Shown here piece after piece: positions 24,027 through 57,205 of a DNA stretch of 64,000 nucleotides (position 1 is the stretch's first letter; each line of letters opens with the position of its first letter). Source of the DNA: Acetobacter sp. (GTDB taxonomy: Bacteria; Pseudomonadota; Alphaproteobacteria; Acetobacterales; Acetobacteraceae); NCBI RefSeq assembly GCF_052102375.1, contig NZ_JBQDXI010000002.1:4159-68158 (forward strand), in the 5' to 3' direction. The translations under genes and the position numbers were made by a program. A model generated the notes under the pieces. It was not told where the DNA came from. It worked only from the letters and a program-made list of their open reading frames with translations, and searched no databases.

Positions 24027-24632
24027 ATGACCCGCTTGTTCCGCATTCTTCCGGCTACTCTGGCCTGCTCTGGTTTTCTGGCAGTTGCCCTCCCTGCCTC
24101 TGCCTGGGCGCAATCCGCCCGTGAGCAGGAGCAACAGGCCGCTGCGGAAGAAGCCCAGCAAAAAGCTGAGGCTGCCAAAGAAGCCAAACGCGCAGCCCCA
24201 CCGGCCGCCATTCCCGGCGCGGGGAATGATGAAGATGACGGTGAGCATGCCAATGCGGACATGGAGCCAACAGCAGCCCTGTTTGACGCCATCAATCGTG
24301 GCAGCGTGAGTGCTGCCAAAGAATCTATCAACCGTGGCGCGGATATGTATCACCGGAATATTCTGGGACAGACCCCGCTTGAAATGTCTATTGACCTGAA
24401 CCGTAACCCCATCACCTTTCTGCTGCTCTCCCTCCGCAGTGCGGACGAACAGGGGGCACGCACCGCTGTGGCAACCGGTGAGCCACGTATGAGCGTGGAA
24501 AACGGTTCGGGCCACCTTACAATCGGCGCGGGTAAGGCTCCGAGCAAAACGTCACGCTACGGTAATCGTTATGATCAGTCCGGCGGCACACCGAAACCGG
24601 AAGTCGGTTTTCTCGGGTTTGGCGGCAGATAA
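24027..24632 (+). CDS. Secreted protein with ankyrin-like repeat
   Basis: Sec signal ending ASAWA-Q; LFDAINRGSVSAAKESINRGAD..RNILGQTPLEMSIDLNRNPITFLL resembles ankyrin consensus. Confidence 0.65.
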   Translation: MTRLFRILPATLACSGFLAVALPASAWAQSAREQEQQAAAEEAQQKAEAAKEAKRAAPPAAIPGAGNDEDDGEHANADMEPTAALFDAINRGSVSAAKESINRGADMYHRNILGQTPLEMSIDLNRNPITFLLLSLRSADEQGARTAVATGEPRMSVENGSGHLTIGAGKAPSKTSRYGNRYDQSGGTPKPEVGFLGFGGR

Positions 24633-24699: not shown

Positions 24700-25833
24700 T
24701 TAGCCAACAGCCGTTTTTAACGCCATTTCCATAGTCTCTTGTGCCAAGGCGAGACTTTCCTGCCGCAGCACGTCCAGAGGCAGCAACTCTCCATTCCGCT
24801 CAAAGTGCCAGAATGTCCAGCCGTTGCAGGAAGGAGCATTTGTCAGCATAGCGCCCATTTTGTGAATGGAGCCGCGCTTTGTACCGCTAACAAGCGTGCC
24901 ATCTGGTGCAACAGTGGCTTGAACGCGCTGTTTCTTGTCACACAAAGCAACACCGGCACCAATAAGCCCCTGCTCTACCAGACTGCCAAACGGTACACGG
25001 GGCGTTTCGCGCTTATCAGGTGTGGCCTGCACGGCGTCCTCGGCGAGAGGCACTTCACGCTCAACACGGTCTCGTGCCGCCGCAACATAGTCCGGGTGAC
25101 GCTCAATACCAATAAAACGGCGGCGCAACCGGCGAGCCATAGCCGGTGTGGTGCCTGTGCCCGTGAAGGGATCAAGCACAACATCCCCAACAGCCGTGGA
25201 GGCCAGAATAACCCGGTGCAGCAAGCTTTCGGGCTTCTGGGTTGGGTGCAGCTTCAGGCCGTGCTCGTTCCGCAAGCGCTCATTCCCCGTGCAGAGGGGC
25301 AGATACCAGTCTGACCGCATCTGCACATCATCATTCAGTGCTTTCATGGCCTGATAGTTGAAGCGGTAACGGCTCGTCTCGCTTTTAGCCACCCAGATCA
25401 TGGTTTCGTGCGCATTGGTAAAGCGCCGCCCACGGAAATTGGGCATAGGGTTGGACTTGCGCCACACAATATCATTCAGGATCCAGAACCCGAGGTCCTG
25501 CAGAATAGCCCCGATCCGGAAAATATTGTGGTAAGAGCCAATCACCCACATGGTGCCGTCTTTATGAAGCACCCGGTGGGCTTCCGTCAGCCAGTCCCGC
25601 GTAAATTTGTCGTAGGCCTGAAGGTCTGTAAATTTATCCCAGTCATCATCCACCCCATCAACAAGGGAGTCATCTGGGCGGCGCAATTCACCACGCAACT
25701 GAAGGTTGTAAGGTGGGTCTGCAAAAATGCAATCCACGGAGCCTGAAGGCAGGCCACGCATGGTTTCCACACATTCGCCGCGCAGAATCTGGTCCAGAGG
25801 CAGTTCCATGCCCATTGATTGTGCGCCGCTCAT
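24700..25833 (-). CDS. ccrM: Cell-cycle-regulated beta-class DNA adenine methyltransferase CcrM (GANTC)
   Basis: [11 protein letters not shown] (motif IV), [42 protein letters not shown] (motif I), C-terminal SIHK...CNGWTFWH domain; adjacent to rnhB. Confidence 0.93.
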
Positions 25834-26459
25834 GCCCGGCCCTCCCTGTTAAAAAGTTCAAGTTGCCGGCGTACTGTGCCGAAAGTTTTACGATGATGCG
25901 GCGTGACACCCACTGTAGTCAGCGCATGGCGATGCACAGGCGTGCCGTAACCGGCATTCCTATCCCACCCATAAGCGGGCCAGCGGGCATCCAGACGCGC
26001 CATAATGCGGTCGCGCACCACTTTTGCAATGATGGACGCCGCCGCGATAGACAGACTCAGGCCGTCACCGCCAACCAGCGTTTGTGTGCTGCACCCAAAA
26101 TCCGGGGTCTTGTTGCCATCCACCAGCACGTGGTCCGGCACACTTGGCAGGCGCGCAACAGCACGCTGCATGGCCAGATGTGCGGCATGATGGATATTCA
26201 TGTCGTCAATTTCAGAGGTCGAGGCTGCGCCAAGCCCGATTTCAATACCCGGCACAGTGGGCAAGCGTGCGGCTATAGCCTCACGCAGCATTGGCTTCAG
26301 TTTTTTGGAATCATCAATAACGGCAGCCAGATCATCCGGCACGCCAGCGGCAAACACGACTGCGGCAGCCACGACAGGACCAGCAAGTGGGCCACGACCC
26401 ACTTCATCCACTCCCGCCACACGCCCACCGTGTTGCATTTCCCGCGTAAAATCTGGCAT
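25830..26459 (-). CDS. rnhB: Ribonuclease HII
   Basis: [53 protein letters not shown]; ATGA overlap with ccrM. Confidence 0.96.
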
Positions 26460-26484
26460 TGCCCCTCTTTCGACTGATTTGGAA

Positions 26485-26574
26485 CGACTCGGTTAAAATT
26501 ACCGAGTCGCACCATCACCGACTCTGTGAGGCAAGGAGAATCACTTTTTGACTCCGAGCGCAAGACTCGGAGTC
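26485..26574. promoter_or_regulatory. Array of seven GANTC (CcrM) sites in two hairpins upstream of rnhB-ccrM
   Basis: GANTC at 26486, 26504, 26520, 26538, 26550, 26564, 26570; IR1 CGACTCGGT/ACCGAGTCG (26485-26509), IR2 GACTCCGAG/CTCGGAGTC (26550-26574). Confidence 0.8.
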
Positions 26575-26583
26575 GGTATTTTT

Positions 26584-26889
26584 TTAGGAACGCTTGCCAC
26601 GTGGGAAAAGCAGCCAGCCAACCAGCAGGCCAACTACGGACACAATACCCAGTGACAGCAGGGGTTTATCGCGCACGAAGGTCACAGCTTTTTCCACTAC
26701 GCCTTCACCTTCTTCGTACAGGTCAGCAAAGTCCTGCTGGGCTGCACCGGTAAACTGGTCAAATTTACCTTCAGCCTGCAAACCGAGATCACCCGTCAGA
26801 CCACCCACAGCGTCTTTGACGCGTCCTTTGGTTTCGTCAACCAGACCTTCAACCTTGTTGGACACGTTTTTCAGTTTATCGTCAGCCAT
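26584..26889 (-). CDS. CsbD-like general stress protein with C-terminal tail anchor
   Basis: KVEGLVDETKGRVKDAVGGLTGDLGLQAEGKFDQFTG CsbD pattern; C-terminal KPLLSLGIVSVVGLLVGWLL TM; AAGGAG RBS favours ATG 26889. Confidence 0.82.
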   Translation of the reverse strand: MADDKLKNVSNKVEGLVDETKGRVKDAVGGLTGDLGLQAEGKFDQFTGAAQQDFADLYEEGEGVVEKAVTFVRDKPLLSLGIVSVVGLLVGWLLFPRGKRS

Positions 26890-26949
26890 TTGGCGTCTCC
26901 TTTTGTTATCGTTTTCCCACACACATCCGCTTAAAAAAGCGGTAATAGT

Positions 26950-28392
26950 GTGTGGTCGGATGTTGCATCAGACCGCAAAAACGCGTCTCTGACTAGCATG
27001 GTGTCACTTAGTCGCGTTCATCTCACAGCCCTTATTGTCGCTTCCATGCTATTTATGGAGCAACTTGATGGCACCATTCTTTCAACAGCCCTCCCATCCA
27101 TTGCTAACAGTTTACATGTGGATACGGTTGCAACCTCTGTTGCGCTGACTGCATATATTATTGGTTTGGCCATATTTATTCCCGCTTCCGGCGCTTTAGC
27201 AGACAGGCTGGGCAGCCGCACTGTGCTGAGCGGGGCCATTATTATGTTTGTCTTGTGCTCGGTTGCCTGTGCATCCGCGCACAGCCTCACGTTTCTGGCT
27301 TGTATGCGCACATTGCAAGGCATTGGCGGGGCATTAATGGTGCCAGTAGGCCGACTTGTTGTATTACGCAGCACCCCTCGGGAAGAGCTTGTCCGCACCA
27401 TGACGTGGATGATGCTTCCCGCAACACTTGGCCCCCTGCTCGGGCCGGTTGTGGGCGGCTTTATCACCACCTACCTTTCTTGGCGGTGGAATTTTTACCT
27501 TAATATACCGGTTGGTATTATCGGCCTTATTCTGACCCGACGCTTCATTCCAGAAGTCAGAGAGAAACAACCACCGCCGTTTGACCTCAAGGGCATGTTT
27601 CTTGCCGGGGGTGGCCTGGCGCTTCTCTCCCTTGTAGCGGAGCTATTCAGCCATAATGAGGGGACTAAAACCCTCATCCTCACTCTTCTGCTCATGGGTG
27701 CTGGCCTGATGAGCATTTACGGCCTCCATGCCCAACGCATCCGGTCTCCGTTGCTGGACTTCCGCCTTCTGGCCACAGACACCTTCCGCATTTCTGTTAT
27801 CGGGGGTGCTGCATCCCGCATTGCCGTGGGGGCCTTTCCCTTTCTGCTGCCAACCTTCCTACAAATTGGCACTGGCATGACGGCAGCCCAAAGCGGCATG
27901 GTGACTTTTCTGGCCCCTGTTGGCGCTATCGGGATAAGGCCATTTGTGCCTGCCATACTCCGCAAATGGGGGTTCCGGCGGGTTTTGGTCACAAACGGAC
28001 TTTCCGCAGGCATACTGGCAGCACTTTTAGCCCAGTATCACCGCGGACAATCACTCTGGGTTTTGGCAGCTATCCTGCTGGCATCCGGCATGGCACAATC
28101 CGTACAGTTTTCAGCCTATAACACCATTGCCTATGCTGATATTCCTGCAAGCCGCATGAGTGCCGCAACCAGCTTTTATGCCACCATGCAGCAACTGATG
28201 CTCTCTTTGGGCATTTGCATCGCGGCTGGCACCCTGACTCTGACAGGCATCTTGAATGTCCATCCCGAGCCCACGCCACATGACTTTGTCATAGCGTTTC
28301 TGGTGGTTGGGTTTATCTCGTTACTTGCCACCCCGGCAGCGGCTCGGCTCGCGCCAAATGCGGGCGCCGTTTTAACTGGCAAAAAGGCATAA
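26950..28392 (+). CDS. DHA2-type MFS transporter (start may be ATG 26998)
   Basis: MEQLDGTILSTALPSIA, LADRLGSRTV motif A, GPLLGPVVGGFITTYLSWRWNFYLNIPVG motif C. Confidence 0.88.
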   Translation: MWSDVASDRKNASLTSMVSLSRVHLTALIVASMLFMEQLDGTILSTALPSIANSLHVDTVATSVALTAYIIGLAIFIPASGALADRLGSRTVLSGAIIMFVLCSVACASAHSLTFLACMRTLQGIGGALMVPVGRLVVLRSTPREELVRTMTWMMLPATLGPLLGPVVGGFITTYLSWRWNFYLNIPVGIIGLILTRRFIPEVREKQPPPFDLKGMFLAGGGLALLSLVAELFSHNEGTKTLILTLLLMGAGLMSIYGLHAQRIRSPLLDFRLLATDTFRISVIGGAASRIAVGAFPFLLPTFLQIGTGMTAAQSGMVTFLAPVGAIGIRPFVPAILRKWGFRRVLVTNGLSAGILAALLAQYHRGQSLWVLAAILLASGMAQSVQFSAYNTIAYADIPASRMSAATSFYATMQQLMLSLGICIAAGTLTLTGILNVHPEPTPHDFVIAFLVVGFISLLATPAAARLAPNAGAVLTGKKA

Positions 28393-56202: not shown

Positions 56203-56886
56203 TCAGCCCTCCGCCGTCACGAGAGCTGCCGGATATGGCGCATCGACATGGCGGGCTTTTTTGATCGCATCACGAATCAGGACGGTGCTGTTTTTTGCAC
56301 CGGGAATGGAGCCACGCACCATAACCAGATTCTTTTCCGGATCGATCGCTGCAATTTCAAGATTCAGGGTGGTGATACGTTCGTCACCCAGATGGCCTGC
56401 CATCTTTTTGTTCTTGAAGGTTTTGCCGGGATCCTGACGGTTACCGGTAGAACCATGAGAACGGTGTGAGATCGAAACACCATGGCTGGCTTCCAGACCG
56501 GCAAAGTTCCAGCGCTTCATGGCGCCTGCGAAACCTTTACCTTTACTGGTGCCGGTCACGTCCACTTTCTGGCCAACAACGAAGTGTGAAGCAGAAAGAG
56601 TTGCGCCGATCTCAAGCGTTGCATCATCAGCAACACGAAATTCGCGAACAACTTTTTTCGGCTCAACCTTCGTGCGGGCAAAATGGCCGCGGTTGGGCTG
56701 GGTGACATTTTTCACCTTGGCTTTGCCCATACCCAACTGAACAGCTGTATAGCCATCACGTTCCTGAGTACGGACATCAACCACCTGCAACGCATCTACG
56801 TGCAGGACGGTGACGGGCACATGCGTGCCATCTTCCTTGAAGAGTCGGGACATGCCCAACTTTTTTGCGATCAATCCGGTGCGCAT
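56203..56886 (-). CDS. rplC: 50S ribosomal protein L3
   Basis: [33 protein letters not shown]. Confidence 0.98.
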
Positions 56887-56896
56887 CGTCTGGACC

Positions 56897-57205
56897 TTAA
56901 AGTTTGATCTCGACATCTACGCCAGCGGCGAGGTCGAGTTTCATGAGGGCGTCCACGGTCTGCGGAGTTGGCTCGACAATATCGAGCAAGCGGCGGTGAG
57001 TCCGAATTTCGAACTGTTCGCGGCTTTTTTTGTCCACGTGGGGAGAGCGGTTAACAGTAAACCGTTCGATATGCGTCGGCAGCGGGATAGGACCCCGAAC
57101 CCGCGCACCCGTACGCTTCGCCGTGTTTACGATCTCTTTTGTGCTGTTATCAAGCACGCGGTGATCGTACGCCTTTAGGCGAATGCGGATGTTCTGGTTG
57201 TCCAT
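56897..57205 (-). CDS. rpsJ: 30S ribosomal protein S10
   Basis: [35 protein letters not shown]. Confidence 0.98.

Follow-up and report, generated by a model that had tools for sequence, protein, structure and literature searches.

Can a DNA methylase measure its own output? This question is raised by a 124-bp intergenic region of Acetobacter sp., located in a stretch of 64,000 nucleotides of contig NZ_JBQDXI010000002.1 (hereafter the window, to which all coordinates refer). The region separates a csbD-like stress protein gene from the rnhB-ccrM operon, which encodes ribonuclease HII (RNase HII) and the GANTC-specific N6-adenine DNA methyltransferase CcrM, and it is occupied by an array of GANTC sites, i.e., the targets of the methylase encoded downstream. 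CcrM is a model bacterial epigenetic regulator whose own control is understood only in Caulobacter, where it is driven by CtrA, and the array is a concrete and readily mutated cis element with which the question can be addressed. The analyses reported here lead us to propose, as the probable reading of this locus, that the region holds a promoter which senses methylation and through which CcrM feeds back on both its own synthesis and that of RNase HII, combined with a second layer that acts on read-through RNA.

A dense array of CcrM target sites upstream of rnhB-ccrM

The rnhB gene (25830..26459, minus strand) encodes a protein of 209 amino acids and its stop codon overlaps the start codon of ccrM (24700..25833, minus strand; 377 amino acids) in the sequence ATGA. 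The gap upstream of rnhB has a G+C content of 49%, is flanked by co-oriented genes and contains seven GANTC sites within positions 26486-26574: GACTC at 26486, GAGTC at 26504, GACTC at 26520, GAATC at 26538, GACTC at 26550, GACTC at 26564 and GAGTC at 26570. Two mirror pairs of these sites lie inside inverted repeats, and four sites (26486, 26504, 26538 and 26564) fit the motif YGAKTCK on one strand when their flanks are read. A preliminary description of the locus had listed the seven sites, the mirror pairs, the YGAKTCK fits, the gene calls and the ATGA overlap, and all of them proved correct, the gap being 124 bp long instead of the ~125 bp given there.

Outside the array, GANTC is rare. 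The window contains 74 sites, against 244 expected from base composition and 198 obtained in dinucleotide shuffles; relative to base composition this is a 3.3-fold depletion, and GANTC is depleted in CcrM-bearing Alphaproteobacteria as well. At the background rate of the window, 0.09 sites would be expected in the array stretch (Poisson P ~8e-12). The preliminary description had proposed a sliding count of GANTC in 100-bp stretches of the genome; in such a count over the 64 kb, the array is the extreme, and no other stretch contains more than three sites. The sole other trio within 100 bp or less (56274-56365) is located inside an open reading frame (ORF; 56203-56916, minus strand) and is therefore not an intergenic array. 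This ORF belongs to a row of short, closely packed ORFs that by appearance resembles a ribosomal-protein operon.

Two other candidate identities of the locus were rejected. A replication origin of the Caulobacter Cori type, with its GANTC cluster, would be marked by a switch in GC skew, and the skew is uniformly negative over the 64 kb, so that the array locus is not an origin. A dispersed repeat or a REP-like (repetitive extragenic palindromic) element was discarded as well, the motif CGACTCGG being found in the window at the array locus alone.

Conservation of the GANTC word

The csbD-rnhB gaps of 26 Acetobacter species align well (alignment A1), and four GANTC sites are invariant in all 26: the distal site at 26564, and the sites that we call A (26520..26524), B (26504..26508; CGAGTCG on the plus strand) and C (26486..26490; CGAGTCG on the sense strand). 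The site at 26538..26542 (TGATTCT on the sense strand) belongs to a subclade, being present in 11 of the 26 aligned sequences, and those at 26550 and 26570 are specific to this species. The distal site has the form GA(C/G)TC followed by TTGC (GANTC-TTGCGC) throughout the genus. Every Acetobacter locus carries four to seven GANTC in the 150 bp upstream of rnhB, while other 150-bp windows contain at most two. In 29 loci from Acetobacter and Gluconacetobacter (two of them from the latter), GANTC density reaches 30.3 per kb in these 150 bp versus 0.98 per kb elsewhere.

The heptamer CTTGCGC (26559-26565; columns 40-46 of A1) directly follows the distal GANTC in all Acetobacter, where it lies in the loop of a hairpin (hairpin 1, described below). 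It is also present in Gluconacetobacter and Nguyenibacter, and as CTTGCAC in Komagataeibacter xylinus, outside the hairpin 1 loop.

Both the csbD-rnhB-ccrM order and the array are kept in other genera of Acetobacteraceae, with seven GANTC in a gap of 314 bp in A. musti, six in 156 bp in K. xylinus, five in 172 bp in Gluconacetobacter diazotrophicus, five in 185 bp in Nguyenibacter and two in 97 bp in Lichenicoccus. The proximal sites of A. musti and of these four genera are GATTC or GAATC instead of GAGTC or GACTC. Since the central base differs between genera, the conserved unit is the GANTC word itself. Conservation is also visible at short range. A strain about 98% identical to ours, represented in four metatranscriptome runs, shows zero differences across the csbD-rnhB gap and its edges (26278-26658), against about one difference per 40 nt in the flanking coding sequence, an invariance that we count as a probable sign of purifying selection.

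These data bear on the explanation that GANTC is a by-product of nucleic acid hairpins, selection acting on pairing only, with no regulatory role of methylation. Five of the seven sites do fall in hairpin arms. Hairpin 1 (26550..26574, minus strand; arms 26550-26558 and 26566-26574) is a terminator-like stem located just after the csbD-like gene; it contains three GANTC, and the two extra sites of this species are the mirror arms of its stem. The second hairpin is formed by sites B and C (26480..26514, minus strand; arms 26480-26493 and 26501-26514; 9-13 bp). The stems of both covary: in B:C, the outer pairs change in a compensatory manner between clades (GGTGC/GCACC, GATGC/GCATC, GGTAC/GTACC and GAGC/GCTC) around six invariant core pairs (GANTC plus one). 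An alternative A:B hairpin is uninformative since all its pairs are invariant. Moreover, Ga. diazotrophicus and Nguyenibacter have lost the third site and keep a GC-rich hairpin in a shifted register. Pairing alone, however, would permit any palindromic word. In 13 representative gaps GANTC occurs 66 times, against one to seven times for each of seven other palindromic words of the same composition, i.e., at a ratio above 9:1 in every case, even though GANTC is the rarest of these eight like-built words in the window (74 versus 156-418). A generic hairpin or palindrome effect thus cannot explain the array. In the B:C stem, GA and TC never vary, whereas the outer pairs and, between genera, the central base do. 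Not every site is part of a stem: site A, the GATTC site and (in most species) the distal site occur in a loop or outside the paired segments. Arrays also precede ccrM in other Alphaproteobacteria that lack these hairpins. The control words and the behaviour of the central base make this the explanation most clearly weakened by the data, and we regard it as unlikely.

The CGANTCG repeats could instead be operator half-sites for a putative dimeric regulator, the overlap with CcrM sites being secondary and methylation at most modulating binding. Sites B and C form a palindrome of 9-13 bp, and the C and G flanks beyond GANTC are conserved. There is a precedent in Caulobacter and Brucella, in which MucR-type proteins occupy promoter regions containing GANTC and keep them hypomethylated. 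Against such an operator, the central base varies between genera while GA and TC do not. The spacing between sites also varies widely: start to start, A-B and B-C are separated by 16 and 18 nt in Acetobacter and by 10 and 11 nt in G. oxydans, and A-B by 12 nt in Gluconacetobacter, which is hard to square with a fixed operator geometry. Furthermore, CGACTCGG is restricted to this locus within the 64 kb, and no candidate regulator gene adjoins the array. An operator of this kind appears improbable to us.

Three conserved sites on a predicted promoter

Within Acetobacteraceae, primary transcripts have been mapped in Gluconobacter oxydans 621H (Kranz et al., 2018; PMC5756330). Its neighbourhood matches that of the window, with a multidrug transporter, a divergent 'general stress protein' and then ribonuclease HII. 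The rnhB gene of this strain (GOX_RS02880) has a primary (5′-triphosphate-enriched) transcription start site (TSS) 43 nt upstream of its start codon and forms a 'primary operon' with the next gene; the stress-protein gene is called monocistronic and is expressed ~10-80 times more than rnhB (PMC5756330). From the synteny in every other family member, we assume that this next gene, GOX_RS02875, is ccrM. The 50 nt upstream of the G. oxydans TSS, catgcatttttgggcttccctttcGAGTCgccatGATTCaaaaccGATTC, contain three GANTC at -26, -16 and -5, the TSS following directly after the third. In an alignment to the Acetobacter consensus, this stretch covers the pyrimidine tract and all three sites A, B and C, and its final nucleotide corresponds to the last base of site C.

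By this homology, the rnhB-ccrM transcript of the window is predicted to start at about 26485 (minus strand) with a 26-nt leader. Relative to this predicted start, sites A, B and C are centred at about -37, -21 and -3 (-39 to -35, -23 to -19 and -5 to -1), and the remaining sites are found at about -57 to -53 (26538), -69 to -65 (26550), -83 to -79 (26564) and -89 to -85 (26570). GANTC sites within ~40-50 bp of a TSS are therefore observed directly in G. oxydans and predicted by homology in the window (-39, -23 and -5). A candidate -10 hexamer, TAATTT (26496..26501, minus strand; -16 to -11), lies in the loop of the B:C palindrome and aligns with the -10 element assigned in G. oxydans (GATTCA). 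The sense strand of the gap shows no strong sigma-70 consensus, and no sigma-54 or EcfG-type motif was seen there by eye. A CtrA box was considered and rejected: a TTAACC half-site occurs alone, in some species, and is unconserved.

The position of site B recalls promoters controlled by GcrA, a protein that in Caulobacter binds sigma-70 and activates promoters with YGAKTCK centred near -20 or at +2 to +30. Site B (CGAGTCG) is a near-consensus YGAKTCK at -23 to -19 from the predicted start, and G. oxydans has CGAGTCG at -26 to -22. The likeness to the Caulobacter GcrA/sigma-70 promoters (ctrA P1, mipZ, ftsZ and cckA) extends to a weak or absent -35 element and to the control of a replication-linked gene.

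Public RNA data bear on the predicted start to some extent. They consist of assembler contigs that carry neither direction nor read ends, and the deep runs give genome-length contigs. A break is seen only in the assemblies of two independent SOLiD RNA-seq runs from an A. pasteurianus-like strain, in which the contig with csbD stops upstream of site A and the one with rnhB begins 3 nt downstream of the homologous start. Because libraries of this kind under-represent structured RNA, these contig ends argue only weakly for a start at 26485.

Sites that overlap the -35 region, the spacer and the start of a predicted promoter could also act through mere occupancy, bound CcrM blocking RNA polymerase at its own promoter and the array serving as a sensor of CcrM concentration. 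Some methylases of restriction-modification systems repress their own genes, multiple sites would raise local occupancy, and, in Acetobacteraceae as in other Alphaproteobacteria, the array is always found with ccrM. Nevertheless, the family matches of CcrM comprise the methylase and RAMA domains only, with no dedicated operator-binding domain, and binding should be transient once a site is fully methylated. We consider such autoregulation by occupancy just as improbable as the operator discussed above.

A leader RNA with an anti-Shine-Dalgarno tract

The gap carries a second, RNA-level signature. A polypyrimidine tract, UUCUCCUUGCCUC (26528..26540, minus strand), is complementary to the ribosome-binding site of rnhB, its 3′ partner (26459..26468, minus strand) comprising the Shine-Dalgarno (SD) sequence GAGGGG (26463-26468) and extending as far as the first nucleotide of the start codon. 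This anti-SD helix was found by RNAalifold, and the minimum free energy fold pairs 26459-26465 with 26528-26534. Four of the seven pairs have changed on both sides (31 cells), e.g., to TTTCT/AGAAAG in A. malorum DsW_057 and in a metagenome-assembled genome (MAG; L008), and to TTGCTTT/AAAGCA in A. thailandicus. The covariation score is 0.49, versus at most 0.31 for slid controls, and was reached by none of 500 shuffles. Duplex energies range from -11 to -19 kcal/mol, and the G. oxydans sequence could pair in the same manner (-16.4 kcal/mol). Complementarity to the SD sequence with compensatory changes, as expected of a leader that sequesters a ribosome-binding site, is thus present.

The anti-SD tract is located upstream of the predicted start, so it would be carried solely by RNA reading through from csbD. 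This arrangement suggests an insulating function, in which neither rnhB nor the coupled ccrM would be translated from read-through RNA, translation being reserved for promoter-proximal transcripts. The gap resembles known 5′ leaders that sequester ribosome-binding sites in that a pyrimidine tract pairs with the SD sequence and start codon; it differs from them by the position of the anti-SD tract upstream of the predicted start and by a proposed role as an insulator rather than as a ligand or temperature switch.

Further RNA elements were considered and rejected. Hairpin 1 does not qualify as an intrinsic terminator of the csbD transcript, its stem being followed on the sense strand by an A-run instead of a U-run. 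On the plus strand, a hairpin resembling a terminator, with a T-run (26548-26585), near a box resembling a promoter could have indicated a small or antisense RNA; the T-run derives from the csbD stop-codon region, occurs in this species only (it is absent in the other 25 Acetobacter species), and the element has no Rfam match. More generally, Rfam 15 gave no meaningful match in positions 26000-27200 (E up to 10).

That rnhB-ccrM has no separate promoter, being the tail of the csbD transcript with the gap as an intercistronic region for processing or translation control, would account for contigs from metatranscriptomes and RNA-seq that run continuously from csbD into rnhB, for an anti-SD:SD helix that places the RNA of the whole gap under selection and for the lack of a strong sigma-70 consensus, but is in our view highly improbable, as rnhB of G. 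oxydans has a primary start of its own immediately upstream and the stress-protein gene there is called monocistronic (PMC5756330), the SOLiD contigs break over the gap, and an anti-SD tract silencing the only mRNA of an essential-type methylase makes little sense.

GANTC arrays at ccrM in other Alphaproteobacteria

Across the alphaproteobacterial loci that we fetched (L001-L070), rnhB directly followed by ccrM is the rule almost everywhere. In most Acetobacteraceae loci (67 bp separate the genes in Acidisoma), and in a few others (L057, L061 and L063), rnhB and ccrM overlap or are almost contiguous; outside Acetobacteraceae they are separated by 100-400 bp, and GANTC is 10-fold enriched in this gap (18.9 versus 1.85 per kb). 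The typical layout upstream of ccrM (L034-L070) is TTGACg-N3-GANTC-N6-GANTC-AT-GATTC, with sites in the spacer and flanking a CATGAT -10 box, the last two forming a near-palindrome across this box. The likeness to Acetobacteraceae thus comprises the rnhB-then-ccrM neighbourhood and an enrichment of GANTC near a promoter-like box (TTGACg-N17-CATGAT). The difference is one of place: in these bacteria the array separates rnhB from ccrM, with sites on both sides of the -10 box (GANTC-AT-GATTC), whereas in Acetobacteraceae it lies upstream of the fused rnhB-ccrM unit.

In kind, the array is not peculiar to Acetobacteraceae, given the arrays found directly upstream of ccrM in other Alphaproteobacteria. 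Rather, comparison of the loci suggests that ccrM is widely associated with its own target sites and that the Acetobacter array is one variant of this link, which would have shifted to a position upstream of rnhB in lineages that joined the two genes into a single translational unit. We found in the searchable literature no description of an rnhB-ccrM link or of such GANTC arrays, and nothing relevant on GcrA in Acetobacter or Acetobacteraceae.

A conserved leader of ~150-200 nt precedes ccrM in aquatic 'Rhodospirillaceae'-type MAGs (L043:3700-4010; same region in L038, L040, L046, L047, L048, L051, L052, L054 and L058). It lies downstream of a -10-like box between two GANTC (GATTC-TAAT-GATTC), and it forms three helices with 11 compensatory pairs, without a match in Rfam (E up to 5). 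This leader is possibly a new cis-regulatory RNA upstream of a DNA methylase gene.

Genes of the locus

The RnhB locus of the window is 99% identical to that of Acetobacter cibinongensis. The rnhB product matches the NCBIfam RNase HII model with 223.6 bits, above the cut-off, and Pfam RNase_HII. The ccrM product matches the NCBIfam CcrM model with an E-value of 4e-190 and 631 bits, a score lower than the 830-bit cut-off of this model, as well as Pfam N6_N4_Mtase and RAMA; its gene is preceded by its own GGGAGGG. In K. xylinus, a second DNA methylase gene (L082:4288-5562; Pfam MethyltransfD12, Dam-like) is located immediately downstream of ccrM on the same strand.

The csbD/DUF883-like stress protein gene (26584..26922, minus strand; Pfam CsbD and DUF883_C) most likely starts at the ATG at 26889, which is preceded by AAGGAGA, and not at the GTG at 26922 of the mechanically called ORF. 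RNA contigs from two runs end at 27016-27024, one of them with adapter attached, and this may be the start of the csbD transcript. On the other side of the operon, an ORF of ~200 amino acids (24027-24632, plus strand) is convergent to ccrM; it has a signal-peptide-like N-terminus and no Pfam or NCBIfam match. Family-less genes encoding 206-232 amino acids occupy the equivalent position in A. musti (L081:4432-5064), Ga. diazotrophicus (L083:4507-5205) and Nguyenibacter (L084:4382-5002). No regulator candidate is encoded beside the array locus.

A two-layer model for the control of rnhB-ccrM

With CcrM encoded by the operon, target sites near the predicted start and conservation of these sites, the array has the features that would be expected, at the sequence level, of a GANTC-regulated promoter. 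In the model that we favour, the 124-bp gap would be a control region with two layers. In the DNA layer, a sigma-70-type promoter covered with CcrM target sites would start transcription just downstream of site C (~26485, minus strand). Passage of the replication fork would turn full methylation of the sites into hemimethylation, and CcrM would restore it; promoter output could in this way follow CcrM activity. The likeliest reader of the marks would be RNA polymerase itself or the sigma-70 cofactor GcrA. In the RNA layer, read-through from the strongly expressed csbD-like gene would carry the anti-SD tract, which would pair with the ribosome site of rnhB, the B:C hairpin possibly acting as a clamp. 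Translation would then be efficient only for transcripts begun at the methylation-sensitive promoter.

The preliminary description had already interpreted the locus as an epigenetic autoregulatory switch. This idea is strengthened by the specificity for GANTC, by the conservation of the array in Acetobacter and neighbouring genera, by the three sites on a promoter mapped in G. oxydans and by the fit of site B to GcrA; it has to be narrowed from seven sites to four, those at 26550 and 26570 being peculiar to this species, and extended by the covarying leader RNA with its anti-SD tract on the rnhB ribosome site, which the earlier account of the inverted repeats had missed. The sign of the feedback is not readable from sequence, nor is the cooperativity between sites that the preliminary description had entertained.

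Several observations weigh against a methylation-sensing promoter. The start in this genome is placed by homology with that of a relative, and the RNA contigs add little: the RNase III fragmentation used for SOLiD libraries could itself deplete the hairpin region, and the contigs spanning csbD and rnhB indicate that co-transcription with csbD is real. The assignment of TAATTT as a -10 element is tentative, since it lies 10 nt from the start, a long distance for a sigma-70 promoter. In Komagataeibacter and Gluconacetobacter the sites are conserved but no AT-rich box lies between B and C, so that the promoter may sit elsewhere in these genera. As for GcrA, sites A and C lie outside both zones from which it acts, and GcrA-activated promoters of Caulobacter almost never have sites beside the -10 element or the start. 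An N-terminal GcrA probe found no match in the 64-kb window. Finally, one site of the Caulobacter ccrM promoter has been described as minor in its effect on ccrM expression.

Comparison with known systems

In Caulobacter, it is considered most probable that methylation of GANTC in the ccrM promoter controls this gene, whose leader reportedly contains two sites in an inverted repeat. The two systems are alike in that the control region of the methylase gene bears the target sites of its own product. They differ in several respects. The Acetobacter array comprises four to seven sites instead of about two, and three of them lie over the predicted -35 region, spacer and start, not in the leader. 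The Acetobacter promoter would drive rnhB first, with ccrM translationally coupled to it, and a read-through leader that sequesters the ribosome-binding site appears to be superimposed. CtrA activates ccrM in Caulobacter, whereas the CtrA circuit is reduced in Acetobacteraceae: Gluconobacter, Acidiphilium and Granulibacter are reported to have ccrM and gcrA but neither divK nor chpT, and in two of them a clear ctrA is missing too. This reduction makes a route through methylation and GcrA more plausible than control by CtrA.

With respect to the GcrA regulon, the Acetobacter sites A (-37) and C (at the start) occupy zones that are nearly empty in Caulobacter. The density of sites is also unusual. 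Among 96 cell-cycle-regulated TSSs of Caulobacter with a GANTC within 50 bp upstream, 11 have more than one, as compared with three sites within 40 bp in Acetobacter. The array may thus be considered a richer version of the feedback known from Caulobacter, from which it differs by site number, placement, the fused rnhB-ccrM unit and the putative read-through insulator.

The array also gives access to the questions of whether GcrA reads several sites at one promoter and of why a ribonucleotide-repair enzyme is tied to the methylase. The leader, for its part, is an example of how an operon with a low-level housekeeping function may be shielded from a strong stress gene located upstream. If the contribution of the sites proves small, as one Caulobacter site hints, their strong conservation would need another explanation. 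More speculatively, a self-sensing GANTC array at the ccrM promoter might be an ancestral and near-universal part of the alphaproteobacterial CcrM system, and in Acetobacteraceae the main device coupling CcrM and RNase HII to fork passage, i.e., a multi-site hemimethylation timer that the leader shields from stress read-through. We put this forward as a tentative possibility only. If true, Acetobacteraceae would harbour a minimal epigenetic cell-cycle oscillator, composed of CcrM, its own sites and perhaps GcrA, that works without CtrA.

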